Of a stretch of DNA of 64,000 nt, positions 12,395 through 50,093 are shown in pieces. Both the position numbers and the translations under genes were made by a program. Source of the stretch: Eledone cirrhosa (lineage: Eukaryota). Location of the stretch: NCBI GenBank assembly GCA_964016885.1, contig OZ024742.1, forward strand, positions 217,868,001 through 217,932,000, read 5' to 3'. Numbering within the stretch: position 1 is the first letter of the stretch; each line of letters begins with the position of its first letter. The notes below the pieces were generated by a model. The model was not told the DNA's origin and did no database searches. It saw only the letters and a program-made list of their open reading frames with translations.

Positions 12395-14537
12395 ATCATA
12401 CCGTTTCACAACACGCGCTCGGTCTGTCAAGGATGCCTTGTCTACTCCCATCTGTACGCACTGAGTCTCGAGCCAATACTGTGGAAGTTGGAGTTGTTCC
12501 AAGGCATCCTGCTCGACCCGAGACGTGGAAGGGCTGCGTCGGCCTATGCGGATGTCACCGTGATGGTGTCGAACACCTCGGAAATCGAAGTGGTCAGCAA
12601 CTTCTTAGAGGTATATGAAACGTTGATGGGAGCAAAGATAAACCTGAAGAAGTCCATGGGTTTGCAGCTCAGCACCTAAAGAGGCAAATCCATGCCATTC
12701 AACAATGTCGTCGAACGCTGGAGAGACGGCCCGTGCAGTTGCTCTGGGTCTGGTTTGGGCCAGACCCCCAGGCGAATAGGAACTGGGACGAGGTAAAGAA
12801 ATGGGCCGAGAGGAAGCTATCCATGAAAAGTCGGACAGAGGTGGTGAACGCGTACATCACGTCCGTCATTTATTATTTCCTGACCGTCCTTGCTTCACGA
12901 AATCGGAGCAACTGCTTCTCAACTTGTGGAAGGGACAATGGGTGAGGCGGTCCATCTGTAGTGACCTATATTCCGAGGGCTCATGGATACATTCTCCGTG
13001 CGTTGTTTGGCTCAGTTCAGCCAAGCGCCGCCAGCGTAGGAGAATGTATCTCGACTTCCGCCCCAGAGGGAACAATTCCCGCGGCGATTCATAAATCTCT
13101 CTCTTGCTGCTTGGACTCTGAAAGGTCAACACACAGTCATGCAACGGCGAGAGTTTCACTTTGGCCTGTCGGCCTCCTTGGGCCTGGCACAATGCCACAT
13201 TCACTTCTTAACTCTTAATAATGTTTGTTCTTTACTTTGACATGTCACTCAACTTAACTCTTTGTAATTAGTTGTGAATAAAACATGTAAAAATGTTAAG
13301 AAAGACTTTACGACTAATTCCACAAACAATCACTAATCTCACATTTAACAAAACCACACCTTTCCTGTTACAACAAATACACATCATTATAATTCTTCTT
13401 GGTGATATTCCTATTATTAGTTTTCTGCTAAACATCTGTTGCCAACACCCTCTACGCGGAGGGCTGGGCATGCCGTGGTTGATAATATACAAACATGTGC
13501 TGAGGTTACGGCATCTCCAGATATTCCTAAACGATGAACAGGTAGGGTCACCGTTTGTTTGATAGGTCTTCCCGCGGCTCGCCTCTTTGACTGAGTTGTC
13601 GTTGGTCTAGCGAAGACCGAAACAGGGCGTCAGTCATCTGGAATGTTGTCCGGCGCTTAGCGTTCTATACTAGTCGGGCAATACGGTTAATTCCACGCTT
13701 GAGTTCTATAGATGACTACTAGTGGTGGGTAAGGGCGTCGACGTTCTCGGAGAAAATCTAGACGTCGACGAAATCAAACAAACCGTTCTGTTCCAGAGAA
13801 CTTTCGAGTCGGGGACTATGGAGGATTTCCAGAAATCTCTGGCTTGGCAGAGCTACCAGAGAGCATTGCCGGTTCGAGACAAAGTGCTGTCAGAGAGGCC
13901 TACCCAAGATGCGTACAGAGTGACGAAATCGTTCTGCATGCACTCGTCCAGTGTCCCTGCATTGCTGACTTGTAGAATTTTGTTTAACAGCCATTATCGC
14001 GTGTAGGACAAATCCAGCTATCGACCGACTTCATCGTGAAGATCGCCCCGCTGCCTTCTTTTGGCCGTGAACGACAGGCAGTGTTCCTCTGTCTGGTGAC
14101 TGTAGCGAAAGAAGTTGTGTGGTGGACGCGGCTGAAAAAACTGATGACAGACACTTTTTTCTTCGCCCAAGTCCTCACCAATCTTTTCAAGTTCCACCTG
14201 GAAAAGAAGGTGAAGATGGAGAGGAAAGTGTTGGAGCCAGTACATTTGGGTGGGTGAATGTAGTGAAGATGGCTCGTGTGAATGGACCTGCTCTGACCAT
14301 GTACCTATAGGAAGTAGAGGGACACCTTCCTACGGTGCTCTTGAAGATCAGGGTGATCTGTAGGATTTCTAAGTTACCCCTGGGTGGTACTCCTCACTAT
14401 TGGAAAATTTTATTGTTATAAAATTATTTTTAATTGTTACCCGTTATCTTTTTTTACACGTTTTATGTAAACCTCCACATTCCCTGTTTTTGTATTGTCC
14501 TTTATGATTCGGCCCTAGTGGCCAAGAAAGAAATAAT
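12395..14537 (+). pseudogene. Old 5'-truncated Tx1-clade copy (ORF2 RT/C-terminus and 3'UTR) with an insertion at 12960-13432
   Basis: RSVCQGC...LEPIL..LELFQG...SAYADVTV, ICCQHPLRGGLGMPW, ARVNGPAL; 3' motif gccctagtggc; many stops and frameshifts. Confidence 0.9.
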
Positions 14538-21075: not shown

Positions 21076-21100
21076 AATCTATCTATCTATCTATCTATCT
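20891..21100. repeat. (TGTC)n(TATC)n microsatellite, target tract of the Tx1 cluster
   Basis: Direct reading. Confidence 0.95.
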
Positions 21101-21316
21101 CTCTTTCTGTCTAACGTGTGGAATATCGCCGGTAAGTTTTTTGTTAATTTCTATGCAAAAAACCGATCTAATTGTTTGAAAAAAATACAACACTTTGTAG
21201 ATTAACCCCCAAGCTGAATTGTCAGCTGGGTGGTAATCCCATTTTTCGCCCCTGTAGGGGTGAAAATTTTATTTAAAAGTTTGTTTTAAAATATCAAAAT
21301 TTACAAAGTAAAAAAC

Positions 21317-23050
21317 TTGAGCAACACTAGAACGCTGGAGAACGTTAATAGAGAAAAGAGAGAGAAAGAGGCAGATATTAACGTTATATCTGCTTCTGCT
21401 GCTATGGACGTTGCCATAGATACTGTCACAAAAGAAAAAAATATATCAACATTTGAAAATGTCATTATTATTAACAACATAATTATTAACAACAACATCA
21501 CACAAAAAAAGAAAAAGTCTTTCACTGACACAGTCAACAAGAAACAAGATTTTATAAATCTTGATATCTCCAACGCAAGACATATGCTCCAGCAAGGGAG
21601 AAAATTTGTAACTTTCGAAGAAAGAGGTGGGTTTAGAATTAACTCACCCCTTGAAATAAAGGAAGACACAAACCGCCGATCAGTCACTTTTAGGACTGCG
21701 TCAAATTCGTCAAGAAAACCGACATTTGTTAATCAGTCAGATATAGAAGATTCTTTCAAGGAGATTCTAGGAAATGTCGATTTTCTCCAGCGAGGAAAAC
21801 AGTACGGAAGTGTTTCCGTACTGTTTAAAAGCGAGGCACTGGCCCCAAAAAACTCTGTGACACCAATAGTGTCAAAAGCATACACCTTTTTCCCTACATA
21901 CATGGGGAAAAGGACACAAAAAATAAAAATAAAAAACATACCTCCAAGCATTAACATCTGGTGGATCTTGGCTGGCTTCGTAGAGCCAGAAACAGACATA
22001 ATACTTTCGATACGAAAATCCATTCGACAAAGGTGGGCGGGCACCAATTTAAAGATTCTGTTGCAAATGAAACCGGAGAGAATCTCCAAAATATCCGAAA
22101 GAGTCGTTATTGATAATAACAACAAAATAAACATTTCGGTAGAAGGAAGAAAATTTCACTGCTTTCGCTGTGGTAGCACATCTCACCTAAAAGCCTCTTG
22201 TCCACAAACACACAACATCAACATCATAAAAAAAAACGCTATTACCAACACCAACACCAAAACAACCACCACCACCACCACAAGTACAACGACAGACGAC
22301 ACGAGCAACCACACCAAAACAAACAGACACTCAACCAACAACAACAGAAAAAACAGAGACAACACCCCTGAAGAACACATCCCCACTCCATCAAACACTA
22401 CCACAAACACACATACCGAAACACCACCACCACCACACAACATACCCTTATCCCACACACCTGACGATGATTATTCATCGACGGATGAAGCTGCTTCTCC
22501 TTCTTTAAGTGAAGAAGAGGGAGAACCGCGGAAATCCAAAAAACAAAAAAAGAGACACCACAAAACCCCCAAAACTCCAATCACCAACACACAACCACAG
22601 ACACAAACAACAACACAAACAACACCACAGTCAAACATCCCCCTATCAGCAAAACCAACACCAACACCACCCCAAACACAAGCACCCACCATAAAAAGAA
22701 AACTCCCGGATGAACAACAAACTAAAACAATACAACAAAAACACAAACAACAATACGCATACATCAACACAAACAATAAGAGTTTGATGGAGGTCATCTC
22801 CCAAAACCCCAAGGTGGAGACGGAGGGCAAAACTTTCGTCAAGGCAGAATCGTCTCCACACCTTAAACTTATAAGGGTTTCTATGGAAACCTATAAAGAC
22901 CTGAAAATTAAATTTTCACAGGACGTGGGCAACCCCTGCCACAAACCCATCAACCGCGTCCTGTTGAAAGGTTTCCCCACCCCACCCAACACCCCATCCA
23001 GCACCCAAATGGAGATTGAACAACCCGATCTCCAGGAAACGAAAAGGTAA
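21317..23050 (+). CDS. ORF1 nucleic-acid-binding protein (CCHC knuckle); start uncertain, first ATG at 21404
   Basis: 577-codon open frame with CFRCGSTSHLKASC knuckle; homologous to family B ORF1. Confidence 0.85.
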   Translation: MSNTRTLENVNREKREKEADINVISASAAMDVAIDTVTKEKNISTFENVIIINNIIINNNITQKKKKSFTDTVNKKQDFINLDISNARHMLQQGRKFVTFEERGGFRINSPLEIKEDTNRRSVTFRTASNSSRKPTFVNQSDIEDSFKEILGNVDFLQRGKQYGSVSVLFKSEALAPKNSVTPIVSKAYTFFPTYMGKRTQKIKIKNIPPSINIWWILAGFVEPETDIILSIRKSIRQRWAGTNLKILLQMKPERISKISERVVIDNNNKINISVEGRKFHCFRCGSTSHLKASCPQTHNINIIKKNAITNTNTKTTTTTTTSTTTDDTSNHTKTNRHSTNNNRKNRDNTPEEHIPTPSNTTTNTHTETPPPPHNIPLSHTPDDDYSSTDEAASPSLSEEEGEPRKSKKQKKRHHKTPKTPITNTQPQTQTTTQTTPQSNIPLSAKPTPTPPQTQAPTIKRKLPDEQQTKTIQQKHKQQYAYINTNNKSLMEVISQNPKVETEGKTFVKAESSPHLKLIRVSMETYKDLKIKFSQDVGNPCHKPINRVLLKGFPTPPNTPSSTQMEIEQPDLQETKR

Positions 23051-23091
23051 GTGCACCTTTCGTCCTTTTTCTCCAACTTTTCTTCACCAAC

Positions 23092-26000
23092 ATGGCTGGT
23101 TTACGAGTTGGAACCGTGAATGTGCGTGGCCTAGGGATGCCCTGGAAACAGGGCCAACTTTTAAACGACCTTAGGTCACACAGTATGGATGTGATAGCCA
23201 TCACCGAGTCCAGAATCCACAACAGGCAGCAACTAACCCCCATCTTCGACGACTTTGAGATCTACGCATCTCTCTGTCAGCCAGGAGGTGGAGGTGGAGT
23301 GGCTGTTATGTTTCGGAAGAACCTGGACGTCGGAGTACAGCAAGTACACTTGGACCCGGAGGGTAGACTGGTAGTCCTAGACGTGAACAGTATCGGAGGT
23401 GGAGCCTTCAGACTAGTGGCCGTTTATGCCCCGACCGGGCAATCGCAATCACGGCCAGACTTCTTGAAGCGTCTAGAGTCTTTTCTGGGAACGTCTCGCT
23501 CCTTACTTTTAGTGGGGGACTGGAATGGTATCCTAGATGCACGATGGGACTATGTGGGAGCATGTCCCAGTAGAGCGGGGTGCAACAGCCTCAAAACTTT
23601 AATCGGCCAATTCCAACTGGCCGATAGGTATCGACTGGATTTACCGACTGCACCACAGTGGACGTGGGTAAACCGCAGTGGGACATCTAGATCGTATTTA
23701 GATAGGTTCTTCATTAGAGAAAGGGACAAGGATATGTTAAGCTGTCCACGAATGCACATGGTTGCCTATTCAGATCACAAGTTAATCGTCTGCTTAGTCA
23801 ACCGTGATAGAATACATAGACAGGGTCCCGGATACTGGAAGCTGAACGTGTCGTTGCCGGCACGTAAAGCTTACAGTGAACGGATAAGTAAACTAGTCAA
23901 GCAACAGTTAACGGGAGCCATCGTCAACAATAGATGGTGGTACTCTCTCAAGAAAGCAATTAGAATAGAATCGATAGGGTATAGCAGAGAGTTAGCCTTA
24001 GAGAAAAACAGAATAGAAAGAGAACTAGTAGCCAAGGTAGAGGAGGCACTTAGAAGTGGCAACGCGGCTAGAGTGTTAGCGTCGAGAACGGCACTGGACC
24101 AGTTCTTCGATGCGAAACACGAAGGCTGCGTGGTCAGAAGCAAAACACGTGCTCTAGGAAACGAAGGAGCGAAAGCTGTCAGCTGGGCCCGAGTGGCGGA
24201 GGCAAAAAGTGGCAACAAGTCCACGATTCGGTCTTTGAAAGACCAAAACGGACGCGTGCTACTTGACCCCAAGCAAATGTGCGCGGCCTTTCAGCGGCAC
24301 TTTGCGCGACTGTTTGAGCAGAACGACGGTGAGCCGAACGGGGCAATGGACTTTAGTTCATACCTCGACGGCCTGCCGCGTCTCTCGAACACGGACGCCG
24401 AGTTCTGCGAAAGACCGATCACGGACACTGAGATACGGGACGCTCTGGGCCGCTGCGGGAAACGCAAGTCACCCGGTCTAGATGGTCTACCCTACGAATT
24501 TTACATAGGCATGCCGGACTTGTTCTCTGGCGTCCTCGAAGCCGTCTACTGCAATTGGCAGCAGAACGGGAGAATTCCCAGTTCTGCAGGCAAGGGCGTA
24601 GTAACGCTGATCAGGAAAGACGAGAACAAGGGGGACGAAATTAACAACTTCAGGCCCATAACTCTGCTCAACACAGAGTTAAAGATTTTGGCCAAGGTGC
24701 TAGCGACGAGGTTGGCGCTTGTCGTCGAGAACCTGGTAGGGAAAGCGCAAACGTGTGCAATCCCGACCAGGTCCATACACGACAACCTCCACCTCATGCG
24801 ATACATCATAGAGAGGGTGGGTAGTAAACCCGGCTTCGGTGGGGCTCTGATCAACTTGGATCAGTCTAAGGCATTCGATAGGGTCGACCATCGATACTTG
24901 GAAGCGGTTCTCAAGGCGGCCGGTTTCGGTCCCGTGTTCAGAGGATGGATCGAGGCGATGCACACCAGCATCTGCTCGAGGGTCAAGGTGAACGGCTACC
25001 TATCGGAGCCGTTCGCAATCACGCGTTCCATTCGACAGGGATGCCCTCTCTCCTCCATTCTGTATGTATTGACTCTAGAGCCACTACTGCGGAAATTGGA
25101 GCTGTTGCAGGGCATCCCCCTAGAACCGGGACTGCGCAAAGCGGCGTCGGCTTATGCCGACAACGTGACTGTAATGGTGTCGAGCACCTCGGAAATCGGG
25201 GTGATCGGCAACATACTGAAAGAATACGAAACGCTGACGGGAGCAAAACTAAACCCAGACAAGTCTGTCGGTTTGCAACTCGGTACGTGGAGAGGCAAAC
25301 CGATGACATCCGACAGCGTCGTTGGACGCTGGACGGACGGACCGGTGAAATTGCTCGGGGTCTGGTTCGGTCCAGACCTCCAGGTGGAGAAAAACTGGAA
25401 CGAGGTCACGGCCAAGGTGTTTGCACTCACTCAGAAGTGGGCAGAGTGCAAACTGTCCTTGAAAGGTCGAGCGGAGGTGGCGAACACTTTCATAGCGTCC
25501 GTCATCTACTACCGCTTGACTGTCGTGCCTTGTCCCCGTGAACACCTCGCCAAGATGGAACGCATGCTCTTCCAGTTTCTGTGGAAGAAGCAGGCTCCCC
25601 TGGTGAGGAGATCCGTCTGCTGTCAGCACCCTTCCAACGGAGGGCTGGGAATGCCGTGGCTGATGATGCGCAAACATGCGCTGAGGCTGCGGCATCTCCA
25701 GGTATTCCTCACCGACCCCCAACCGGTGTGGGCACCGTTTGTGAGACAGGCTTTCCCACAGCTCGTCTCGCCAACGGAGCTGCAGTCCTGGGTGAAAAAA
25801 AGACCGAAAACGATGGGCGCCTGGCACATTGAATGCGCTCAGGCGCTCACAGTCCTCTGGCAAGCGGGCGCAGCAATCAGTGGAGACTCCACTTCGACAT
25901 TCTATAGAGGGATTGTACGTTACAAGGGCGACGACGTGCTCGGAGAGACTCTGGGCGTCGAAGACGATGAGCTCACCAGTATGTTTGGTAGGACTTTCCG

Positions 26001-26538
26001 CCCGGGACCTATGGACAACTTCCAGAGGTCCCTGGCCTGGCAGTGCTACCGAGGAGCTCTACCGGTTCGTGACAAGATCTACAGGCACGGACGCCCTGGC
26101 AGGGATCCTTCCAAGAGGACGTGTCCAAGATGTGCGCAGGACATTGAAACAGTTCTGCACGCAATTGTACACTGCCCGGGCGTAAGCGACCTGTGGAACT
26201 ATGCAGAACAACTGCTGTCGCGTATGGGACAAATACAGTTGACTGCCGAGTCCATAGTAAGGATCAAACCGCCAGACTCTTTCAAAAACGAAAGAGAGGC
26301 GGTTTTCCTCTGTACGGTGGCTATGGTGAAAGAAGTTATATGGTGGACGAGGTTGAGAGGACTGAGGACAGATGCCTTTCTCTCCGGACAACAATTGATT
26401 CCCTTCTTTAAGTATCACTTTAGAAGGAGAATCAGGGTGGAGAGAGAGGCACTGCACCCCAGTAAATTTACTGAAAGGTGGGTGAATGAAGCGAAAATGG
26501 CCCGAGTGATTGGGCCTTCTCTGTTTATAAGCCTGTAG
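23092..26538 (+). CDS. ORF2 APE endonuclease plus RT plus C-terminal Zn knuckle (RT active site YADN)
   Basis: NVRGL, GDWN, SRSYLDR, SDH (APE); KSPGLDGLP, RPITLLN, LDQSKAFDRV, RQGCPLS (RT); CPRC...HAIVHC. Confidence 0.95.
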   Translation: MAGLRVGTVNVRGLGMPWKQGQLLNDLRSHSMDVIAITESRIHNRQQLTPIFDDFEIYASLCQPGGGGGVAVMFRKNLDVGVQQVHLDPEGRLVVLDVNSIGGGAFRLVAVYAPTGQSQSRPDFLKRLESFLGTSRSLLLVGDWNGILDARWDYVGACPSRAGCNSLKTLIGQFQLADRYRLDLPTAPQWTWVNRSGTSRSYLDRFFIRERDKDMLSCPRMHMVAYSDHKLIVCLVNRDRIHRQGPGYWKLNVSLPARKAYSERISKLVKQQLTGAIVNNRWWYSLKKAIRIESIGYSRELALEKNRIERELVAKVEEALRSGNAARVLASRTALDQFFDAKHEGCVVRSKTRALGNEGAKAVSWARVAEAKSGNKSTIRSLKDQNGRVLLDPKQMCAAFQRHFARLFEQNDGEPNGAMDFSSYLDGLPRLSNTDAEFCERPITDTEIRDALGRCGKRKSPGLDGLPYEFYIGMPDLFSGVLEAVYCNWQQNGRIPSSAGKGVVTLIRKDENKGDEINNFRPITLLNTELKILAKVLATRLALVVENLVGKAQTCAIPTRSIHDNLHLMRYIIERVGSKPGFGGALINLDQSKAFDRVDHRYLEAVLKAAGFGPVFRGWIEAMHTSICSRVKVNGYLSEPFAITRSIRQGCPLSSILYVLTLEPLLRKLELLQGIPLEPGLRKAASAYADNVTVMVSSTSEIGVIGNILKEYETLTGAKLNPDKSVGLQLGTWRGKPMTSDSVVGRWTDGPVKLLGVWFGPDLQVEKNWNEVTAKVFALTQKWAECKLSLKGRAEVANTFIASVIYYRLTVVPCPREHLAKMERMLFQFLWKKQAPLVRRSVCCQHPSNGGLGMPWLMMRKHALRLRHLQVFLTDPQPVWAPFVRQAFPQLVSPTELQSWVKKRPKTMGAWHIECAQALTVLWQAGAAISGDSTSTFYRGIVRYKGDDVLGETLGVEDDELTSMFGRTFRPGPMDNFQRSLAWQCYRGALPVRDKIYRHGRPGRDPSKRTCPRCAQDIETVLHAIVHCPGVSDLWNYAEQLLSRMGQIQLTAESIVRIKPPDSFKNEREAVFLCTVAMVKEVIWWTRLRGLRTDAFLSGQQLIPFFKYHFRRRIRVEREALHPSKFTERWVNEAKMARVIGPSLFISL

Positions 26539-26771
26539 GTTGAGGAAGAGAGCAAAAGGAAGAAAGGAGCACTTGCACAACACGCTCCTGGAGTTGAGGG
26601 TTGTTCTATCGACGGGGTATTAAACAACCCATTTGTGGCGCCTCCCCCCTATTGGGGATTTCGATTGTTGAAATTGTTTGTTTTTATATTTTTTACACGA
26701 CTGTATGTAAAATCCCCGGCATGTCTTTGTATTGTCCCCTTTCTTGTTGCGCCCTTGTGGCTAATAAAGAA

Positions 26772-26843: not shown

Positions 26844-29463
26844 GTTAGCTGGGCCCGCGTGACAGAGGCCAACAGTGGAACTAAATCCACCATCCGGTCT
26901 TTGCGAGACCTGGATGGACGGGCGATTCTTGAGCCTAGGCAGATGTGTGAGGCCTTTCAAAGGCACTTTGCCCGACTGTTCGGGAGGGGCGGGGAGCCGG
27001 TTGGGAACGTGGACTTCGGTCCATACCTCGACGGCCTTCCGCGCCTCTCGGACAGGGAGGCGAAGTCCTGCGAGGAGCCGATTTCGGCCGCTGAGATAGA
27101 GGACGTGCTGAGCCAATGCGGCAAACGCAAATCCCCGGGTCTCGATGGTCTTCCTTACGAATTATATCTAGCTATGCCGGACTTGTTCCCTGATCTCCTC
27201 GAGGCGGTCTACTGCAACTGGCAACAGAACGGGAGAATTCCCTGTACTGTGACCAAGGGCGTAGTCACGCTAGTGAGGAAGGACGAGAACAAGGGGGACG
27301 AAATAAGTAACTTCAGGCCCATAACTCTGCTAAATACAGAGTTACAGATTTTGGCCAAGGTGCTAGAAAAGAGGTTGGCGCTTGTCGTGGGCAACCTGGT
27401 GGGAGATGCGCAGACATGCGCTATCCCGTTAGGTCCATCCATGACAACCTCCACCTCATGCGATACATCATAGAGAGGGTTGGGAACGAACCCGGCTTTG
27501 GTGGGGCTCTGATCAACTTGGATCAATCTAAGGCGTTCGATAGGGTCGACCATGGTTACCTGGATGCGGTGCTAGCGGCGGCAGGCTTCGGACCCGTTTT
27601 CAGGGGCTGGATCACTGCTATGCACAGCAGCCGCATCTGCTCTAGGGTCAAGGTGAACGGCTACCTCTCGGAGCCGTTCAAAATCGCGCGGTCCATCCGA
27701 CAAGGGTGCCCTCTCTCCTCCCTTCTGTATGTGTTGACTCTCGAGCCACTACTGCGGAAGTTGGAGTTGTTGCAGGGCATCCCTTTGGAACCGGGATTGC
27801 GGAAAGCGGTGTCGGCCTACGCCGATGACGTGACAGTAATGGTGTCGACGGCCTCCGAAATCGAGGCGGTCGGCACCTTACTGGAGGAGTACGAAAAGTT
27901 CACAGGGGCTAAGCTGAACCGGGACAAGTCGATCGGTTTGCAACTCGGCGCGTGGAGGGGCAGACCGATGCCCTCCGATGGCGTCGTCGGACGCTGGACG
28001 GAGGGCCCGGTGAAGTTGCTCGGGGTCTGGTTCGGACCGGACCTCCAGGTGGAGAAAAACTGGGCGGAGGTTACGAACAGGGTGTTTGCACTGACCCAGA
28101 AGTGGGCCAGTTGCAAACTATCCCTGAAAGGTCGGGCGGAGGTGGCGAACACCTACATAGCGTCCGTCATCTACTACCGCCTGACCGTAGTGCCCTGCCC
28201 AAGGGAAACCCTCACCAAGATGGAGCGGGCGCTCTTCCAATTCCTTTGGAAGAGGCGGGCTCCTATGGTGAGGAGATCCATCTGCTGTCAACACCCTTCG
28301 AAAGGAGGGCTGGGGATGCCGTGGCTAATGATGCGTAAACACGCATTAAGGCTACGGCACCTCTACGTATTCCTCACCGGACAACCGGTGTGGGCCTCGT
28401 TTGTGAGACGAACCTTTCCCAGACTCGTCTCACTCACCGAGCTGCAATCCTGGGTCAAGCAAAGACCGAGAAAACTGGGCGCCTGGCACACTGAGTGTGC
28501 CCAGGCGCTCACCGCCCTCTGGCAGGCGGATCCGGTTATCAGTGGAGACTCCACCGCAACATTCTATAGAGGGCTGGTACGCAGCAGGTGCGACGACGCC
28601 CTCGGAGAAGCCCTAGACATGGAGGAGGACGAACTGGCCAGCCTGTTCGGTAGGACATTCAGCCCGGGACCTATGGACAACTTCCAGAAGTCCCTGGCCT
28701 GGCAGTGCTACCGAGGGGCTTTACCCGTTCGAGAAAGGCTCTACAGACACGGGCGCCCGGGTAGGGACCCCGCCAAAAAGATCTGTCCCAGATGCGTGTG
28801 CGACGAGGAAACCGTTGCACACGCATTGGTACACTGCTCGGGCGTAGCCGATCTGTGGGGCTATGTCGAACAACTGCTGTCAAGGGTGGGACCGATCCGG
28901 TTGACCACCGAGTCTATTGTAATGATCAAGCCGCCTCCCCCCTTCAAAGATGAAGCAGAGGCGGTGTTTCTGTGCGTAATAGCCATGGCGAAAGAGGTTG
29001 TATGGTGGACGCGTCTGAAAGGACTGAGGTCAGGCACCTTTCTCTCTGGCCAACAACTGGTCCGTTTCTTCCGATTTCATTTCGGAAGAAGGATCAGGAT
29101 GGAGAGAGAGGTGCTGCACCCCAGCCGTTTTTATGAAAGGTGGGTGAAAGTGGCGAGAATGGCCCGTGTGAATGGGCCTTCTCTTTACATAAGCCTGTAG
29201 GTGGAAAAGAGGAAGGAACGAGGGAGCACCCCCTCTCTGTGCTCCTGAGGAAAAGGGTTGCACACTTTTTTCGGGGGTGTGTGCGACCCCCCAAGGCGCC
29301 TCCTCTCTATTGAGGATTTTGTTAAAAATTTTATTTTTTGTTATATCTTATTTTATTTTTATATTTTGTTATTGCCTCCTCCTTATTGAGGACGCCTTTT
29401 TGTGTAAACTCCCCCCTTTGTACTTGTCCCACTTTTGATGCCCTAGTGGCAAATAAAAGAAAC
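26842..29463 (+). mobile_element. 5'-truncated Tx1 family B copy (B0) with an ORF2 frameshift near 27430
   Basis: Starts mid-ORF2 directly after (TATC)n; cccgttagg versus cccgtccagg in intact copies. Confidence 0.95.
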
Positions 29464-29753
29464 TTATCTATCTATTAATCTATCTATCTATCTATCTCTG
29501 GGATGGACACACGCGTATAACTTGCTGAGTAAGTTCTGTTTAAATTTCTATAGAAATTCTTGTCTGATAACTTTAATTTTTGTACCATTTTGTAGAGGGA
29601 CTGCCAGGTCAAACTTTGATCTGGTCAGTCTCTCAAAATATTCTACGCCTTTAGGCGAAATAGTTAAAAAAAAAGTTTTTTCTTGTTGAAAAGTCAATAT
29701 TTTTTTAAATGGCCGAAGCTTCTTCACCAAAATTCGAAGGAGGAAAGGGGTAG

Positions 29754-31502
29754 ATGAACTTACAGCTTCCCCCTGCCACTGTCACAGTAGCAGAGGTCAA
29801 GAAGATAGGTCAGCCAGAGGAAGAATTCTCTCCACCTGTTAACCGACAACTTGACGTTGCCATGGCAACAACCCAAAGAACCAGCAGCAACAGCAACAAC
29901 AACAACAATGCGACGGACGAAAACAACACCAATAACAATAACAATAACAACAACAACAAGACCAATAACGGTGACAACAACAACAATGATAACAACAACA
30001 CCACCAACGACAACAACAACACAAACAAACAAAATTTCTCCTTCGCCGAGACGACAAGGAAAACCCTCGACTATCTACCAGTAGATATAACAAAAGCGAA
30101 GGAGCTACTGGCGGATGCGAAAAAATATATAGTGTACGGGGAAAATGGTTCATTCACAATCCATTCCCCCCCGGAACTAAAAAGCCAGAGACTCCTAAAC
30201 ACGGTCATGTTTAGGACAATCTCGAACAAAAGTAAAAAACCAGCTCAACCATCACAGAGCGAGATAGAGCTGGTTTTAAAAGACGTCATGAAGGACATCA
30301 CCTTCATTCAGAAGGATAGACTCTACGGGAGTCTATCCATTCTCATGAAGGACAGGGACACAGCAGTGAAACTGTCCATCAAACCAATCACATCCACCGC
30401 ATACACCTTCTACCCTACGTACATGGGTAGAAGAACACAACAAATAAAAATCCACACCATCCTGCCGATTATGGACATATGGTGGGTTTTGACAGGTTTT
30501 CTGGACCTGGAGGATGACATGCTGGTGTCCATGGGAAAGGCATCGGGTGACGCGTTCAGTGGAACGAGCCTCGAACTTGTAGTTCAAATGAGGCCCGAAA
30601 GGATCGCCCAGATCCCTGAACGCGTCATACTGGATGATCTAACCTTCATCAACATTACCGTTGAGGGTAGACGGCCCTCGTGTTACCTCTGCGGAACCAG
30701 AGGTCACCTGAGGGCTGTCTGTCCCCAACTTAATAAGAAAACCCCAATCCTGCCTACACCACCAACAACTGCACAACCAACACAATCACCACAACTACCA
30801 CTACAAAAACAACCACCACAGCTCAAACCAAAACAAAACAATGTCCAACCCATCCCCTCCACTCAAAAAACAAAAACAATTTCCAAAACACCCGTACCGC
30901 AAACACAACCCGAAAATATACCCCTCCCCTCCAACGCGGAAGATGACCCTAGTTCGTCGTCAGACGAGGAGGAGCACTTCCACACAATCAAAAGAAAAAA
31001 AAGAAAACACACCTCAGACACACAAATGAAAAAAAACCCTCCCCAAAACATAACACTGACACCAACACAAAAGAGCTCACAACAACAGCAAACAAAAAAC
31101 ACCACACAAAAACAAAAACATGCATACACATACATAAATACAAGAAACAAAAAACTGTTAAACATTGTGTACAACAACAATCTAATAAAAACACAAGGGC
31201 CTAACTTCACCCAGGCAGGGGATTTCCCCCACCTCAAAATGATTAAGGCCCCACAGGACACCTATAAAACTTTAAAAAACAATTTTAAAGAGGACGTGGG
31301 TCCCCCCTGCGTCGGGCCCATTAACCGCGTCCTCCTAAAAAACTATCCCACCCCCTCCCCAAACACCCACACAACTCCAAGCTCCCCAACCACACATCAC
31401 ACTGATGCCCCCACACTTCCACAAACCACCACCCCACCCAACAACCCATCCCCCACCCTAATGGAAATTGTGCAGCCCGATACCCGGGACGCAGAGAGGT
31501 AA
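29754..31502 (+). CDS. ORF1 (582 aa, CCHC knuckle)
   Basis: CYLCGTRGHLRAVC; poly-N N-terminal region. Confidence 0.9.
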   Translation: MNLQLPPATVTVAEVKKIGQPEEEFSPPVNRQLDVAMATTQRTSSNSNNNNNATDENNTNNNNNNNNNKTNNGDNNNNDNNNTTNDNNNTNKQNFSFAETTRKTLDYLPVDITKAKELLADAKKYIVYGENGSFTIHSPPELKSQRLLNTVMFRTISNKSKKPAQPSQSEIELVLKDVMKDITFIQKDRLYGSLSILMKDRDTAVKLSIKPITSTAYTFYPTYMGRRTQQIKIHTILPIMDIWWVLTGFLDLEDDMLVSMGKASGDAFSGTSLELVVQMRPERIAQIPERVILDDLTFINITVEGRRPSCYLCGTRGHLRAVCPQLNKKTPILPTPPTTAQPTQSPQLPLQKQPPQLKPKQNNVQPIPSTQKTKTISKTPVPQTQPENIPLPSNAEDDPSSSSDEEEHFHTIKRKKRKHTSDTQMKKNPPQNITLTPTQKSSQQQQTKNTTQKQKHAYTYINTRNKKLLNIVYNNNLIKTQGPNFTQAGDFPHLKMIKAPQDTYKTLKNNFKEDVGPPCVGPINRVLLKNYPTPSPNTHTTPSSPTTHHTDAPTLPQTTTPPNNPSPTLMEIVQPDTRDAER

Positions 31503-31526
31503 GTGCCTTTTCTCTTCACCACCAAC

Positions 31527-34500
31527 ATGGCTATGCTAAGAGTAGGCTGTTTAAATGCGCGTGGCCTGGGCTCAACTTGGAAGCAAGCAATGCTTCTAAA
31601 TGACCTCAGGTCACAACGTATAGATGTGATGGTTATTTGCGAGGCCCGGATCAGCAACGTGCGACAGCTGGCCCCCGCCTTTGATGACTTTGAGATGCAC
31701 GCATCTCTCTGTCAGCCCGGAGGCGGGGGTGGAGTTGTCGTTCTGCTGCAAAAACATCTGGGTCTCGCAACACAGATGGTACATTTGGACCCGGAGGGTC
31801 GACTAGTGGTTCTGGACCTTGGCAGTGGTAAAGGCGGAGCGTTTAGGTTGGTAGCCGCCTACGGCCCTTTCGGGTCAATGCGGCCGGACTTCTTCCATCG
31901 TCTGGAGACTTTTCTAGGGACGTCCCGCTCCTTGCTATTAGTGGGGGACTGGAATGGTATCCTAGATGCACGCTGGGACTACGTAGGGGCCTGCCCCGAT
32001 AGCGAGGGGTGTAATAGCCTCAAAGGGTTAATCGGTCGATTTGACCTGGCCGATAGATATCGACTAGATTTTCCGACTGCGCCAACCTGGACTTGGGCAA
32101 ATCGTAGCGGATCATCTAGGTCGTACCTAGATAGGTTCTTAGTTAGAATTAAGGATAAGGACTTTTTAAGTTGTCCAAAAATGCGCATGGTTGGCTATTC
32201 AGACCACAAATTAGTGACCTGCATGGTCAACCTTGACAGAACTCATAGACAGGGCCCCGGTTACTGGAAGCTCAACTTGTCCTTGCCGGCAAGTAGAGCC
32301 TACAGGAATCGGATTAGTACGTTAGTTAAGGAACGGTTGACTGGAGCGATCGTCAACAGCAGGTGGTGGGTATCTCTAAAGAGAGAGATTAGAGTAGTCT
32401 CGATAGAATTTAGTAAGGTTCTAGCTGCGGATAGGAATAGGAAGGAAAGGGAGCTAATAGATAGAGTAGAAGAGGCAATTAGAAGCGGCGACGTGGCCAG
32501 AGTGCTAGCGTCGAGAACGGCTTTGAGCCAGTTTTTCGACGCGAAGCACGAAGGCTGCGTTGTCCGAAGTAAAATACGTGCTCTAGGGAACGAGGGGACC
32601 AAAGCTGTTAGCTGGGCCCGCGTGACAGAGGCCAACAGTGGAACTAAATCCACCATCCGGTCTTTGCGAGACCTGGATGGACGAGCGATTCTTGAGCCTA
32701 AGCAGATGTGTGAGGCCTTTCAAAGGCACTTTGCCCGACTGTTCGGGAGGGGCGGGGAGCCGGTTGGGAACGTGGACTTCGGTCCATACCTCGACGGCCT
32801 GCCGCGCCTCTCGGACAGGGAGGCGAAGTCCTGCGAGGAGCCGATTTCGGCCGCTGAGATAGAGGACGTGCTGAGCCAATGCGGCAAACGCAAATCCCCG
32901 GGTCTCGATGGTCTTCCTTACGAATTATATCTAGCTATGCCGGACTTGTTCCCTGATCTCCTCGAGGCGGTCTACTGCAACTGGCAACAGAACGGGAGAA
33001 TTCCCTGTACTGTGACCAAGGGCGTAGTCACGCTAGTGAGGAAGGACGAGAACAAGGGGGACGAAATAAGTAACTTCAGGCCCATAACACTGCTAAATAC
33101 AGAGTTACAGATTTTGGCCAAGGTGCTAGCAAAGAGGTTGGCGCTTGTCGTGGGCAACCTGGTGGGAGATGCGCAGACATGCGCTATCCCGTCCAGGTCC
33201 ATCCATGACAACCTCCACCTCATGCGATACATCATAGAGAGGGTTGGGAACGAACCCGGCTTTGGTGGGGCTCTGATCAACTTGGATCAATCTAAGGCGT
33301 TCGATAGGGTCGACCATGGTTACCTGGATGCGGTGCTAGCGGCGGCAGGCTTCGGACCCGTTTTCAGGGGCTGGATCACTGCTATGCACAGCAGCCGCAT
33401 CTGCTCTAGGGTCAAGGTGAACGGCTACCTCTCGGAGCCGTTCAAAATCGCGCGGTCCATCCGACAAGGGTGCCCTCTCTCCTCCCTTCTGTATGTGTTG
33501 ACTCTCGAGCCACTACTGCGGAAGTTGGAGTTGTTGCAGGGCATCCCTTTGGAACCGGGATTGCGGAAAGCGGTGTCGGCCTACGCCGATGACGTGACAG
33601 TAATGGTGTCGACGGCCTCCGAAATCGAGGCGGTCGGCACCTTACTGGAGGAGTACGAAAAGTTCACAGGGGCTAAGCTGAACCGGGACAAGTCGATCGG
33701 TTTGCAACTCGGCACGTGGAGGGGCAGACCGATGCCCTCCGATGGCGTCGTCGGACGCTGGACGGAGGGCCCGGTGAAGTTGCTCGGGGTCTGGTTCGGA
33801 CCGGACCTCCAGGTGGAGAAAAACTGGGCGGAGGTTACGAACAGGGTGTTTGCACTGACCCAGAAGTGGGCCAGTTGCAAACTATCCCTGAAAGGTCGGG
33901 CGGAGGTGGCGAACACCTACATAGCGTCCGTCATCTACTACCGCCTGACCGTAGTGCCCTGCCCAAGGGAAACCCTCACCAAGATGGAGCGCGCGCTCTT
34001 CCAATTCCTTTGGAAGAGGCGGGCTCCTATGGTGAGGAGATCCATCTGCTGTCAACACCCTTCGAAAGGAGGGCTGGGGATGCCGTGGCTAATGATGCGT
34101 AAACACGCATTAAGGCTACGGCACCTCTACGTATTCCTCACCGGACAACCGGTGTGGGCCTCGTTTGTGAGACGAACCTTTCCCAGACTCGTCTCACTCA
34201 CCGAGCTGCAATCCTGGGTCAAGCAAAGACCGAGAAAACTGGGCGCCTGGCACACTGAGTGTGCCCAGGCGCTCACCGCCCTCTGGCAGGCGGATCCGGT
34301 TATCAGTGGAGACTCCACCGCAACATTCTATAGAGGGCTGGTACGCAGCAGGTGCGACGACGCCCTCGGAGAAGCCCTAGACATGGAGGAGGACGAACTG
34401 GCCAGCCTGTTCGGTAGGACATTCAGCCCGGGACCTATGGACAACTTCCAGAAGTCCCTGGCCTGGCAGTGCTACCGAGGGGCTTTACCCGTTCGAGAAA

Positions 34501-34964
34501 GGCTCTACAGACACGGGCGCCCGGGTAGGGACCCCGCCAAAAAGATCTGTCCCAGATGCGTGTGCGACGAGGAAACCGTTGCACACGCATTGGTACACTG
34601 CTCGGGCGTAGCCGATCTGTGGGGCTATGTCGAACAACTGCTGTCAAGGGTGGGACCGATCCGGTTGACCACCGAGTCTATTGTAATGATCAAGCCGCCT
34701 CCCCCCTTCAAAGATGAAGCAGAGGCGGTGTTTCTGTGCGTAATAGCCATGGCGAAAGAGGTTGTATGGTGGACGCGTCTGAAAGGACTGAGGTCAGGCA
34801 CCTTTCTCTCTGGCCAACAACTGGTCCGTTTCTTCCGATTTCATTTCGGAAGAAGGATCAGGATGGAGAGAGAGGTGCTGCACCCCAGCCGTTTTTATGA
34901 AAGGTGGGTGAAAGTGGCGAGAATGGCCCGTGTGAATGGGCCTTCTCTTTACATAAGCCTGTAG
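31527..34964 (+). CDS. ORF2 APE-RT, intact YADD
   Basis: ATG at 31527 aligns with the family A start; all APE and RT motifs present. Confidence 0.96.
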   Translation: MAMLRVGCLNARGLGSTWKQAMLLNDLRSQRIDVMVICEARISNVRQLAPAFDDFEMHASLCQPGGGGGVVVLLQKHLGLATQMVHLDPEGRLVVLDLGSGKGGAFRLVAAYGPFGSMRPDFFHRLETFLGTSRSLLLVGDWNGILDARWDYVGACPDSEGCNSLKGLIGRFDLADRYRLDFPTAPTWTWANRSGSSRSYLDRFLVRIKDKDFLSCPKMRMVGYSDHKLVTCMVNLDRTHRQGPGYWKLNLSLPASRAYRNRISTLVKERLTGAIVNSRWWVSLKREIRVVSIEFSKVLAADRNRKERELIDRVEEAIRSGDVARVLASRTALSQFFDAKHEGCVVRSKIRALGNEGTKAVSWARVTEANSGTKSTIRSLRDLDGRAILEPKQMCEAFQRHFARLFGRGGEPVGNVDFGPYLDGLPRLSDREAKSCEEPISAAEIEDVLSQCGKRKSPGLDGLPYELYLAMPDLFPDLLEAVYCNWQQNGRIPCTVTKGVVTLVRKDENKGDEISNFRPITLLNTELQILAKVLAKRLALVVGNLVGDAQTCAIPSRSIHDNLHLMRYIIERVGNEPGFGGALINLDQSKAFDRVDHGYLDAVLAAAGFGPVFRGWITAMHSSRICSRVKVNGYLSEPFKIARSIRQGCPLSSLLYVLTLEPLLRKLELLQGIPLEPGLRKAVSAYADDVTVMVSTASEIEAVGTLLEEYEKFTGAKLNRDKSIGLQLGTWRGRPMPSDGVVGRWTEGPVKLLGVWFGPDLQVEKNWAEVTNRVFALTQKWASCKLSLKGRAEVANTYIASVIYYRLTVVPCPRETLTKMERALFQFLWKRRAPMVRRSICCQHPSKGGLGMPWLMMRKHALRLRHLYVFLTGQPVWASFVRRTFPRLVSLTELQSWVKQRPRKLGAWHTECAQALTALWQADPVISGDSTATFYRGLVRSRCDDALGEALDMEEDELASLFGRTFSPGPMDNFQKSLAWQCYRGALPVRERLYRHGRPGRDPAKKICPRCVCDEETVAHALVHCSGVADLWGYVEQLLSRVGPIRLTTESIVMIKPPPPFKDEAEAVFLCVIAMAKEVVWWTRLKGLRSGTFLSGQQLVRFFRFHFGRRIRMEREVLHPSRFYERWVKVARMARVNGPSLYISL

Positions 34965-35517
34965 GTGGAAAAGAGGAAGGAACGAGGGAGCACCCCCTCT
35001 CTGTGCTCCTGAGGAAAAGGGTTGCACACTTTTTTCGGGGGTGTGTGCGACCCCCCAAGGCGCCTCCTCTCTATTGAGGATTTTGTTAAAAATTTTATTT
35101 TTTGTTATATCTTATTTTATTTTTATATTTTGTTATTGCCTCCTCCTTATTGAGGACGCCTTTTTGTGTAAACTCCCCCCTTTGTACTTGTCCCACTTTT
35201 GATGCCCTAGTGGCAAATAAAAGAAACTTATCTATCTATTAATCTATCTATCTATCTATCTCTGGGATGGACACACGCGTATAACTTGCTGAGTAAGTTC
35301 TGTTTAAATTTCTATAGAAATTCTTGTCTGATAACTTTAATTTTTGTACCATTTTGTAGAGGGACTGCCAGGTCAAACTTTGATCTGGTCAGTCTCTCAA
35401 AATATTCTACGCCTTTAGGCGAAATAGTTAAAAAAAAAGTTTTTTCTTGTTGAAAAGTCAATATTTTTTTAAATGGCCGAAGCTTCTTCACCAAAATTCG
35501 AAGGAGGAAAGGGGTAG

Positions 35518-37266
35518 ATGAACTTACAGCTTCCCCCTGCCACTGTCACAGTAGCAGAGGTCAAGAAGATAGGTCAGCCAGAGGAAGAATTCTCTCCACC
35601 TGTTAACCGACAACTTGACGTTGCCATGGCAACAACCCAAAGAACCAGCAGCAACAGCAACAACAACAACAATGCGACGGACGAAAACAACACCAATAAC
35701 AATAACAATAACAACAACAACAAGACCAATAACGGTGACAACAACAACAATGATAACAACAACACCACCAACGACAACAACAACACAAACAAACAAAATT
35801 TCTCCTTCGCCGAGACGACAAGGAAAACCCTCGACTATCTACCAGTAGATATAACAAAAGCGAAGGAGCTACTGGCGGATGCGAAAAAATATATAGTGTA
35901 CGGGGAAAATGGTTCATTCACAATCCATTCCCCCCCGGAACTAAAAAGCCAGAGACTCCTAAACACGGTCATGTTTAGGACAATCTCGAACAAAAGTAAA
36001 AAACCAGCTCAACCATCACAGAGCGAGATAGAGCTGGTTTTAAAAGACGTCATGAAGGACATCACCTTCATTCAGAAGGATAGACTCTACGGGAGTCTAT
36101 CCATTCTCATGAAGGACAGGGACACAGCAGTGAAACTGTCCATCAAACCAATCACATCCACCGCATACACCTTCTACCCTACGTACATGGGTAGAAGAAC
36201 ACAACAAATAAAAATCCACACCATCCTGCCGATTATGGACATATGGTGGGTTTTGACAGGTTTTCTGGACCTGGAGGATGACATGCTGGTGTCCATGGGA
36301 AAGGCATCGGGTGACGCGTTCAGTGGAACGAGCCTCGAACTTGTAGTTCAAATGAGGCCCGAAAGGATCGCCCAGATCCCTGAACGCGTCATACTGGATG
36401 ATCTAACCTTCATCAACATTACCGTTGAGGGTAGACGGCCCTCGTGTTACCTCTGCGGAACCAGAGGTCACCTGAGGGCTGTCTGTCCCCAACTTAATAA
36501 GAAAACCCCAATCCTGCCTACACCACCAACAACTGCACAACCAACACAATCACCACAACTACCACTACAAAAACAACCACCACAGCTCAAACCAAAACAA
36601 AACAATGTCCAACCCATCCCCTCCACTCAAAAAACAAAAACAATTTCCAAAACACCCGTACCGCAAACACAACCCGAAAATATACCCCTCCCCTCCAACG
36701 CGGAAGATGACCCTAGTTCGTCGTCAGACGAGGAGGAGCACTTCCACACAATCAAAAGAAAAAAAAGAAAACACACCTCAGACACACAAATGAAAAAAAA
36801 CCCTCCCCAAAACATAACACTGACACCAACACAAAAGAGCTCACAACAACAGCAAACAAAAAACACCACACAAAAACAAAAACATGCATACACATACATA
36901 AATACAAGAAACAAAAAACTGTTAAACATTGTGTACAACAACAATCTAATAAAAACACAAGGGCCTAACTTCACCCAGGCAGGGGATTTCCCCCACCTCA
37001 AAATGATTAAGGCCCCACAGGACACCTATAAAACTTTAAAAAACAATTTTAAAGAGGACGTGGGTCCCCCCTGCGTCGGGCCCATTAACCGCGTCCTCCT
37101 AAAAAACTATCCCACCCCCTCCCCAAACACCCACACAACTCCAAGCTCCCCAACCACACATCACACTGATGCCCCCACACTTCCACAAACCACCACCCCA
37201 CCCAACAACCCATCCCCCACCCTAATGGAAATTGTGCAGCCCGATACCCGGGACGCAGAGAGGTAA
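35518..37266 (+). CDS. ORF1 (582 aa)
   Basis: Identical to B1 ORF1. Confidence 0.9.
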   Translation: MNLQLPPATVTVAEVKKIGQPEEEFSPPVNRQLDVAMATTQRTSSNSNNNNNATDENNTNNNNNNNNNKTNNGDNNNNDNNNTTNDNNNTNKQNFSFAETTRKTLDYLPVDITKAKELLADAKKYIVYGENGSFTIHSPPELKSQRLLNTVMFRTISNKSKKPAQPSQSEIELVLKDVMKDITFIQKDRLYGSLSILMKDRDTAVKLSIKPITSTAYTFYPTYMGRRTQQIKIHTILPIMDIWWVLTGFLDLEDDMLVSMGKASGDAFSGTSLELVVQMRPERIAQIPERVILDDLTFINITVEGRRPSCYLCGTRGHLRAVCPQLNKKTPILPTPPTTAQPTQSPQLPLQKQPPQLKPKQNNVQPIPSTQKTKTISKTPVPQTQPENIPLPSNAEDDPSSSSDEEEHFHTIKRKKRKHTSDTQMKKNPPQNITLTPTQKSSQQQQTKNTTQKQKHAYTYINTRNKKLLNIVYNNNLIKTQGPNFTQAGDFPHLKMIKAPQDTYKTLKNNFKEDVGPPCVGPINRVLLKNYPTPSPNTHTTPSSPTTHHTDAPTLPQTTTPPNNPSPTLMEIVQPDTRDAER

Positions 37267-37290
37267 GTGCCTTTTCTCTTCACCACCAAC

Positions 37291-40728: not shown

Positions 40729-41281
40729 GTGGAAAAGAGGAAGGAACGAGGGAGCACCCCCTCTCTGTGCTCCTGAGGAAAAGGGTTGCACACTTTTTTC
40801 GGGGGTGTGTGCGACCCCCCAAGGCGCCTCCTCTCTATTGAGGATTTTGTTAAAAATTTTATTTTTTGTTATATCTTATTTTATTTTTATATTTTGTTAT
40901 TGCCTCCTCCTTATTGAGGACGCCTTTTTGTGTAAACTCCCCCCTTTGTACTTGTCCCACTTTTGATGCCCTAGTGGCAAATAAAAGAAACTTATCTATC
41001 TATTAATCTATCTATCTATCTATCTCTGGGATGGACACACGCGTATAACTTGCTGAGTAAGTTCTGTTTAAATTTCTATAGAAATTCTTGTCTGATAACT
41101 TTAATTTTTGTACCATTTTGTAGAGGGACTGCCAGGTCAAACTTTGATCTGGTCAGTCTCTCAAAATATTCTACGCCTTTAGGCGAAATAGTTAAAAAAA
41201 AAGTTTTTTCTTGTTGAAAAGTCAATATTTTTTTAAATGGCCGAAGCTTCTTCACCAAAATTCGAAGGAGGAAAGGGGTAG

Positions 41282-42985: not shown

Positions 42986-43009
42986 GTGCCTTTTCTCTTC
43001 ACCACCAAC

Positions 43010-46447: not shown

Positions 46448-46730
46448 GTGAGGAAGATGAAAGACCAAGGGAGCACCCCTTCTCTGTGCTCCTGAGGAGA
46501 AGGGTTGCACACTTTTTTCGGGGGTGTGTGCGACCCCCCAAGGCGCCTCCTCTCTATTGAGGATTTTGTTAAAAATTTCATTTTTTGTTATATCTTATTT
46601 TATTTTTATATTTTGTTATTGCCTCCTCCTTATTGAGGACGCCTTTTTGTGTAAACTCCCCCCTTTGTACTTGTCCCACTTTTAATGCCCTAGTGGCAAA
46701 TAAAAGAAACATATCTATCTATCCTGATAG

Positions 46731-47087: not shown

Positions 47088-50093
<3,006 letters not shown>

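Follow-up and report, generated by a model that had tools for sequence, protein, structure and literature searches.

A splice donor at the end of ORF1 and a predicted duplex around ORF2 in an L1/Tx1-like LINE family of Eledone cirrhosa

A family of L1/Tx1-like long interspersed nuclear elements (LINEs) in the genome of Eledone cirrhosa carries a splice donor at the end of its first open reading frame (ORF1). It appears that this donor takes part in a long-range RNA duplex that closes the second frame (ORF2) into a loop. The family likely combines a splice resembling that of copia with a brake resembling that of duck hepatitis B virus (DHBV), and is a member of neither group. It was studied from a window of 64,000 nt, the whole stretch of DNA analysed (assembly GCA_964016885.1, contig OZ024742.1, positions 217,868,001 to 217,932,000 of the forward strand). 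Coordinates below are window positions, and a slash within a motif marks a candidate splice boundary. An earlier note on this window had proposed that all of ORF2 is bracketed by splice signals built into the two stop codons. The observation is real and more elaborate than first read. The donor half is supported by conservation and by two joins that are GT..AG-exact, whereas support for the acceptor half is weakened because its letters are also paired and no retrocopy was found for it in genome searches.

The window is a head-to-tail cluster of the family: element A, the 5'-truncated copy B0, three full B copies (B1 to B3), a B4 fragment, and a broken copy C. Two older copies are also present. 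Subfamily letters past A to C are labels coined in this analysis. Both ends were curated in 37 collinear copies drawn from 80 donor-centred loci and 3 window copies, the rest being truncated, interrupted, or uncurated, and comparisons across the family refer to 18 subfamilies and their representatives. The main parts of element A are as follows.

21114..26771, plus strand: element A, full-length L1/Tx1-like LINE between (TATC)n runs, ends approximate
21290..23050, plus strand: ORF1 of A, open frame of 586 aa, first ATG at 21404, CCHC knuckle, terminating in AGG TAA
23044..23052, plus strand: ORF1-end donor AAG/GTAAGT of A
23092..26538, plus strand: ORF2 of A, the would-be intron body, 1148 aa, with endonuclease, reverse transcriptase, and zf-RVT
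26763..26768, plus strand: AATAAA poly(A) signal of A, with the (TATC)n tail behind it

The donor at the end of ORF1

The motif AG/GTAAGT with the ORF1 stop TAA at +2..+4 is present at 23047, 31499, 37263, 42982, and 49127, exactly where the earlier note had placed it. On the plus strand of the window, AGGTAAGT occurs only at those five donors, and one more occurrence lies on the minus strand. Because the five copies are not independent of one another, chance was assessed genome-wide. The pattern AGGTAAGT N15-45 CAACATGG gave 4,574 matches compared to 51 for a reversed control, and the genome holds ~4,600 ORF1/ORF2 junctions of the family in all. A search for ORF2 starts that was blind to the donor gave 4,680 matches; the first letter of its pattern leaves out copies with T at -76, A among them. 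Among the first 100 of these matches, counted by eye, GT was present at the site in 98 (55 GTAAGT, 22 GTAGGT, 15 GTGAGT, and 6 other GT), and 2 were broken. Subfamily P, with 253 matches of which 100 were listed, has the donor GTAGGT.

Does the stop codon account for the donor? The earlier note had described the donor as built into the ORF1 stop. This description fits the phase-2 subfamilies, but F, G, and M (phase 1) and D (phase 0) retain the donor with their stop further on. All three stop codons (TAA, TAG, and TGA) occur at the site, and each of them fits the known U1 donor consensus. The spacer between the donor and the ORF2 ATG ranges from 25 to 47 nt across subfamilies. The GT, +5G, and +6T are invariant in the 18 representatives while adjacent helix positions swap pairs. 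Because the donor is kept irrespective of stop codon and phase, its sequence points very strongly to selection as a U1-type donor site. A further subfamily, represented by L083:2600 without its 3' end, has a spacer of 52 nt and the donor AG/GTAATT.

A predicted duplex around ORF2

Co-folding predicts a helix between two distant stretches, one running from the final ~24 nt of ORF1 through the donor and spacer into the ORF2 ATG context, the other made up of the final ~9 nt of ORF2 and ~65 nt of the 3' untranslated region (3'UTR). This pairing was overlooked by the earlier note and is new in this analysis. The arms in the window are listed here.

23023..23097, plus strand: 5' arm of A (last 24 nt on the exon side, donor, 45-nt spacer, ORF2 ATG context); -74.2 kcal/mol, 56 bp
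26530..26601, plus strand: 3' arm of A (last 9 nt of ORF2 and first 63 nt of 3'UTR)
26571..26576, plus strand: anti-donor hexamer ACTTGC of A, predicted to pair with donor +1..+6
31475..31532, plus strand: 5' arm of B1, donor 31499, ORF2 ATG 31527
34956..35022, plus strand: 3' arm of B1, ORF2 stop 34964; -68.2 kcal/mol, 47 bp
37239..37296, plus strand: 5' arm of B2, donor 37263
40720..40786, plus strand: 3' arm of B2, ORF2 stop 40728
42958..43015, plus strand: 5' arm of B3, donor 42982
46439..46505, plus strand: 3' arm of B3, variant 3' end with CTATAG/G at 46447; weaker, -54.6 kcal/mol

A duplex of 46-61 bp and -50 to -78 kcal/mol is predicted in 18 of 18 representatives, with z values of -3.1 to -9.1 against dinucleotide shuffles, at most 1 in 100 of which were as good. 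The spacer of A is by itself complementary to the start of the 3'UTR at -44.3 kcal/mol, a value matched by 0 of 1,000 shuffles. Cognate arms pair at a mean of -65.8 compared to -54.6 for non-cognate arms, and 0 of 20,000 permutations reach the cognate value; related subfamilies are not independent in this test, and the arms of L2, O, and I prefer non-cognate partners. When seven representatives spread over the tree were taken, 1, 1, and 5 of 5,040 permutations reached the cognate fit. The cognate 3' arm was the best partner of the 5' arm in all 5 elements scanned and beat the best partner of every random window tried, by a narrow margin in G and D. When the whole 3.8-kb region was folded, pairing between spacer and 3'UTR was present each time (3 of 3), in A only over +1..+23 of 45. 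In subfamily P, which was collected after the duplex had been proposed, the duplex is predicted in 5 of 5 copies with the 3' end in range. A search of window positions 21000-36000 against Rfam gave 0 matches at the gathering score.

Evidence of another kind comes from compensatory changes. At the donor, an A-U pair becomes G-C at +3 in L and at +4 in K, N, and P, and a G-C pair becomes C-G at +7 in K and P. At the ORF2 start, C-G becomes U-A at ATG-1 in D and A-U at ATG+5 in P, and the latter double change is nonsynonymous at each end of ORF2. The letters facing GTAAGT are ACTTGC or ACTTAC, those facing GTAGGT are ACCTAC (K), and those facing GTGAGT are ACTCAC (L); this hexamer changes with the donor variant in A, C, G, K, L, and most of J. 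A small internal loop within the helix takes up donor positions +2..+4 in several subfamilies, B, E, F, and I among them, and +5 and +6 are paired in 17 of 18 representatives. The modelled duplex is very probably real.

What might such a helix do? One alternative is that it serves mainly as a translation switch. In other words, the ORF2 AUG would stay hidden until ribosomes ending ORF1 melt the 5' arm, the ORF2 stop would be held by the ORF2 start, and the donor would be kept for a minor or separate reason. How bicistronic LINEs initiate ORF2 is open for most non-LTR (long terminal repeat) families (PMC3894237). In all 18 subfamilies the A of the ORF2 ATG is predicted to be base-paired, as are its flanks in 17-18 of them, and the register is the one that also includes the ORF2 stop; the extension of the helix ~24 nt into ORF1 fits a translation switch as well. 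SART1 offers a likeness, since RNA structure near its ORF1/ORF2 boundary affects ORF2 initiation (PMC3894237), as the predicted duplex may do here. In SART1, the structure lies downstream of an overlapping UAAUG, whereas here the 25-47 nt spacer is predicted to pair with a partner 3.4 kb away. However, a translation switch leaves unexplained why GT, +5G, and +6T are invariant in the 18 representatives and why the donor survives where +2..+4 are unpaired. It is rather improbable as the main role of the duplex.

In B-type duplexes, the adenosines of the ORF1 stop face cytosines in an internal loop (31500-31502 opposite 34990-34995), a possible editing context. Heavy A-to-I editing is known in coleoids, and the duplex might be an editing substrate in which the ORF1 stop is turned into a sense codon and ORF1 is fused to ORF2. 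However, ORF1 and ORF2 are in frame in some subfamilies only. Frames 0, 1, and 2 all occur and none is conserved, and fusion by readthrough, editing, or a short splice was rejected on this ground. The editing reading has a negligible probability.

Could both motifs be products of descent and stop-codon constraint, with no selected RNA function? All subfamilies descend from one ancestor in the tree, and pyrimidine-rich and purine-rich strands pair easily. Distant relatives, in which the earlier note had suggested looking for the motif, do not share it at the stop in the loci read. A first metagenome scan for relatives found nothing, and a second gave 31 loci, the best 10 of which were read and were all 26-40% identical to the query. 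The motif AG/GT was present at the stop in 0 of the 8 L1-type relatives with a visible ORF1 end among these 10. A search for ORF1 homologs found none, and the feature appears, from sequence, to be limited to this lineage so far. Against descent, the donor letters stay while the spacer (25-47 nt) and the stop codon vary, composition-keeping shuffles are beaten in 18 of 18 representatives, and double changes preserve pairs. These results largely refute it, and it is very improbable. One of the 8 relatives has GG/GTGAGT directly before the ORF1 stop (L105:1925-1935), like subfamily M, which may be chance.

The candidate acceptor and the search for spliced products

At the other end of ORF2, the earlier note had reported an acceptor-like TAG/G after a pyrimidine-rich stretch. 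The letters are as reported, with CCTGTAG/G at 26538, 29200, 34964, 40728, and 46820 and CTATAG/G at 46447 and 14310. A further window copy that was absent from that list, with its ORF2 end near 55428, reads CTAAG/G. The stretch before the motif is a modest tract, with a pyrimidine fraction of 0.56-0.81 at -20..-5 in the 18 subfamilies. Two features of A lie here.

26529..26539, plus strand: acceptor-like region of A, with AG at 26530-26531 (-7) and the ORF2 stop TAG/G at 26536-26539
26489..26526, plus strand: predicted local hairpin at the ORF2 end of A, pyrimidine tract in its 3' arm; double change in subfamily G

Among the first 100 of 3,046 ORF2 ends, examined by eye with a pattern that misses G, 97 had TAG and 96 had TAG/G. 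By a crude score devised here, the stop AG placed among the top 14 of 255-285 AGs in all but three of the 18 subfamilies, the exceptions being B2 (21), B3 (35), and G (65), and it was never first outright in any subfamily. From its sequence, an acceptor at the ORF2 end is plausible.

Removal of ORF2 had been expected to extend ORF1 into the 3'UTR. Such an extension is not a feature of the family, as ORF1 would end no more than 2 codons past a splice to the TAG in B3, I, K, N, P, F, D, G, and M, which make up 9 of the 18 subfamilies. In the other 9 representatives the tail would be 28-79 residues long, that of A having 28 residues including the junction codon. A second AG is found at -7 in 11 of 18 representatives, and in A, C, B, B2, E, and L this route would give a 2-residue tail instead. 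With both routes counted, 15 of 18 subfamilies could end ORF1 with no more than 2 added residues. An extension of ORF1 as a function was rejected, with tails ranging from 1 to 79 residues. A match of stop phase was counted as weak proof of an acceptor because the early stops come from a T before the purine run that pairs with the spacer.

More direct evidence on the use of the donor comes from fossil joins in the genome. There were 43 ORF1 ends without a GT after them, most of which were point mutants or small indels. Among the 43, L148-L150 are chimeras, and so is L004:1479 (minus strand). In L004 and L148-L150, an ORF1 from another subfamily runs precisely up to its donor boundary, and the next 23 nt are the terminal ones of a B-type ORF1, preceded by CAG in B itself. 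A second, later join is present in L148-L150, where an L-type ORF1 ends at the donor boundary and continues into 76 nt of L004-type sequence, a piece that follows a pyrimidine run and CAG in L004. The upstream segments of L149 and L150 are mostly 94-96% identical to L copies. There were thus two separate join events, both GT..AG-exact, both between subfamilies, and both with ORF2 kept. Scored in a similarly crude way, the CAGs used come 11th among 89 AGs and 2nd among 81. Judged by their sequence, these joins are probably of spliceosomal origin, and there is a good probability that the donor is sometimes cut. Splicing of read-through RNA from tandem copies fits both joins and would leave ORF2 in cis, so that such chimeras could spread. 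The two insertions (76 and 23 nt) jointly restore the ORF1 frame in L148-L150. In L151, an ORF1 end is joined inside ORF2 one base off a GT..AG splice, and this join was not counted.

A regulated splice from the donor to the ORF2 end stands at about even chances, and a number of observations weigh against it. The fossil-join search was conditioned on a break at the donor, the joins carry a 2-nt AG microhomology and lie at most 76 nt from the homologous position, and 41 of 89 AGs in the B ORF1 are YAG; template switching is therefore possible for them. As for the acceptor, higher-scoring AGs lie within ORF2, and subfamily G has TAG/A or TAG/T and ranks 65th. No conserved branch point is visible near the ORF2 end in the 18 subfamilies, and the J, O, and L2 representatives have long tails only. 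The conserved letters CCTGTAG/G are predicted to pair around the ORF2 start, and a hairpin holds the pyrimidine tract. Since pairing can also account for the conserved TAG/G, the acceptor remains a candidate. Searches for ORF2-less copies gave 1 match (a mutated donor), 0, 0, and 0; 0 of the 43 ORF1 ends lacking GT were joined to a 3'UTR, and 0 of 83 3'UTR starts in the collected loci were joined to an ORF1 end. A spliced 5' end of B, described below, was sought as well and gave 3 matches, all mutants.

In total, six genome pattern searches and locus checks found none of the retroposed copies precisely lacking ORF2 that the earlier note had suggested as a test. These searches used exact patterns and left out G, M, J, and O; for P they covered only 100 of 253 matches and the TAG route. 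The pattern for ORF1 ends lacking GT misses junctions with T at +33, which are those of the -7 route of E and the L004-type join. HAL1 (half-L1) elements are ORF1-only derivatives of L1-type elements, as retroposed ORF2-less RNA would give. Unlike in HAL1, no ORF1-only copy was found here for the subfamilies tested. A junction that skips ORF2 would lie ~250 nt from the 3' end, in the part of the element present in the most copies. Because no retrocopy was found despite this position, the spliced RNA would be rare in the germ line, poorly mobilised in trans, or absent. In contigs of four runs of unrecorded kind, depth on element A rises toward the 3' end, as truncated genomic copies would give, and 0 of 15 joints listed (217 more are unlisted) lie at the donor, a result that is uninformative on splicing.

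A second donor is found near the 5' end of full-length copies.

21132..21137, plus strand: second donor-type GTAAGT, near the 5' end of A; also at 29529, 35293, and 41057 (B1-B3) and 47117 (C)

This GTRAGT donor lies 20-35 nt from the 5' end, including in L041, L043, L053, L068, L074, and L086, and is followed by an AT-rich run and two hairpin-like segments. It is kept directly in 20 of 26 contexts and with a 1-nt shift in 4 more, the other 2 being unrelated matches. No conserved acceptor was found for it. Since it is equally conserved and no spliced B copy was found, conserved donors in this family need not be spliced. This supports another explanation for the ORF1-end donor, namely that a U1 site aids transcription or blocks early cleavage during ORF2 synthesis. 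The 3'UTR arm would then strip U1 so that unspliced RNA is polyadenylated and exported, and the TAG would be a paired stop only. The absence of ORF2-less retrocopies from the searches, the 5'-end donor, and the U1-like hexamer in the 3'UTR that follows the donor variant in A, C, G, K, L, and most of J all favor this explanation, as does a splicing-independent role of U1 in the Arabidopsis element EVD (PMC5580714). However, ORF2 lacks both AATAAA and ATTAAA in 23 of 37 copies, leaving few canonical poly(A) signals for U1 to guard. Furthermore, the fossil joins suggest that the donor is cut at least sometimes, and the duplex also buries the acceptor region, which is unneeded if U1 binding is all that matters. 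A role of the donor in U1 binding without splicing is unlikely, though it has a higher probability than the translation switch.

The earlier note had also raised the possibility that the donor back-splices to an acceptor in the 5'UTR and gives an ORF1 circle. A YAG occurs at the 5'UTR position in A and C. However, this AG (at 21257 in A) lies in a hairpin loop and is missing in subfamilies E and K, and the sole genomic match resembling a back-splice junction of A was rejected as a mutated donor. Back-splicing is highly improbable.

A proposed mechanism, known systems, and the element family

The best reading of these results, with a probability of about one half, is a copia-like splice that skips ORF2 and is held down by a DHBV-like clasp. 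The duplex would close ORF2 into a loop, covering the donor, the ORF2 start codon, and the ORF2 stop, and would likely keep most transcripts unspliced. The helix is read as a brake because the predicted fold would block the 3' splice site as well as pairing by U1/U6. A minority of transcripts would be spliced to the ORF2-end acceptor and give an ORF1-only message. In this scheme, U1 would load on the donor during transcription, and commitment of the spliceosome at the ORF2-end AG (the stop TAG or the -7 AG) would race against formation of the duplex. A timed race is proposed because the duplex forms only once the 3'UTR has been transcribed, and its outcome would set the share of ORF1-only RNA. 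The two fossil chimeras suggest that the spliceosome may cut the ORF1-end donor in the germ line. The spliced message would encode a nearly normal, not an extended, ORF1 protein, and would rarely be retroposed because it has no ORF2 in cis. Control of translation may act in the same fold because the helix hides the ORF2 AUG. A fuller version, put forward tentatively, is that the ORF1:ORF2 ratio is set by a timed switch between U1 on the donor and a late, U1-mimicking 3'UTR arm that zips the donor to both ends of ORF2. The switch would choose between an ORF1-only message and an unspliced genome and would gate ORF2 translation, and read-through splicing between tandem copies would have bred the chimeric subfamilies.

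How does this compare with known systems? In Drosophila copia, one intron removes the whole enzyme region (PMC5580714, citing Yoshioka 1990), and the Arabidopsis Ty1-copia element EVD makes a subgenomic gag RNA in which U1 has a dual role (PMC5580714). Like these, the present family has a conserved donor at the end of the region for the structural protein. Unlike these LTR elements, which have one ORF and whose splicing was shown in RNA, it is a bicistronic LINE known from sequence. The sites here coincide with ORF ends, and a long-range duplex covers both. The element likely works like the copia splice and is not a member of that group, as it does not have a single gag-pol frame in an LTR layout. 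In DHBV, long-range pairing between complementary stretches close to the donor and the acceptor protects the reverse-transcribed RNA from excess splicing (PMC3356268). Long-range complementarity at donor and acceptor is likewise found here, as a prediction with covariation. DHBV is a hepadnavirus in which the function was tested by experiment (PMC3356268), whereas in this LINE the function is predicted, and the ORF1 stop also lies within the helix, together with both the start and the stop of ORF2.

Human L1 is another LINE whose RNA has functional donors and acceptors and whose spliced RNAs left fossils in the genome, the spliced integrated retrotransposed elements (SpIREs; PMC5860796). Its splice sites lie in the 5'UTR and ORF1, its splicing is described as harmful, the commonest SpIRE amounts to ~1.8% of full-length copies, and a cis preference is described for it (PMC5860796). 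By contrast, selection appears to act on the donor here, which lies at the end of ORF1, and the fossils, chimeras between subfamilies, keep ORF2. TART has antisense introns, and a list of LINEs with introns is available (PMC1636488). For Octopus vulgaris, 13 recently active L1-Tx1 families are reported, and splicing is unmentioned in the accessible text (PMC13282606). No LINE with an ORF2-skipping splice or an ORF2-closing duplex was found in the literature searched, from which most subscription journals were absent; an earlier description is possible.

LINE splicing is usually viewed as damage to be avoided (PMC5860796), whereas the donor here looks selected. The family may offer a compact answer to the problem of high ORF1 and low ORF2 output, which is open for most families of bicistronic LINEs (PMC3894237). 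In this answer, one helix ties the donor and the ORF1 stop to both ends of ORF2, its start and its stop, and the 18 subfamilies provide natural compensatory variants. Even if no splice skips ORF2, a clasp that closes ORF2 was not found described for any LINE in that literature. With thousands of young copies present, the same donor may also splice into host genes.

The element is bicistronic and non-LTR, with a poly(A) signal and a microsatellite tail. In ORF2 of A and B, an APE endonuclease, a reverse transcriptase, and a C-terminal zinc-binding region were found as the Pfam domains PF03372, PF00078, and PF13966, PF13966 below its cut-off. ORF1 gave 0 Pfam matches; a CX2CX4HX4C knuckle is visible, and the leads from the atlas were zf-CCHC (0.92) and ZCCHC3-type (0.89). 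The closest named relative is a protein of Argonauta hians, at 63%. The label L1/Tx1-like comes from domain layout and general knowledge of such elements. The family appears young, because 18 of the best 40 matches to the A junction in the 3.0-Gb genome share the top, full-length score. The other parts of the family in the window are given below.

26844..29464, plus strand: B0, 5'-truncated B copy, ORF2 stop TAG/G at 29200
46814..46821, plus strand: B4 fragment, ORF2 stop CCTGTAG/G
49124..49176, plus strand: donor (49127) and spacer of copy C, whose ORF2 breaks off near 50095, with no 3' arm in the window
14304..14311, plus strand: old degraded copy, ORF2 end CCTATAG/G

B1 and B2 (29498-35228 and 35262-40992) are identical across 5,731 nt, which indicates a very recent tandem duplication or an assembly repeat. 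Mosaic copies, with 5' and 3' parts from different subfamilies, occur at window positions 46396-46710 and in L040, L090, and L148-L150. Tails vary by subfamily among the 37 curated copies, being (TATC)n-like in A, B, C, M, and P, (ATT)n in F, D, and one G, and of another kind in K; this suggests different microsatellite targets. A (GA)n run lies in frame within ORF2 of copy C (49791-49887). A SINE-like (short interspersed nuclear element) repeat of ~170 nt occurs at 52660-52835, 55780-55990, and 55995-56175, twice directly behind the (ATT)n tail of the D copy. Lastly, a tandem repeat with a 468-nt unit, present in 2.9 copies that are 98% alike, occupies window positions 627-1960.

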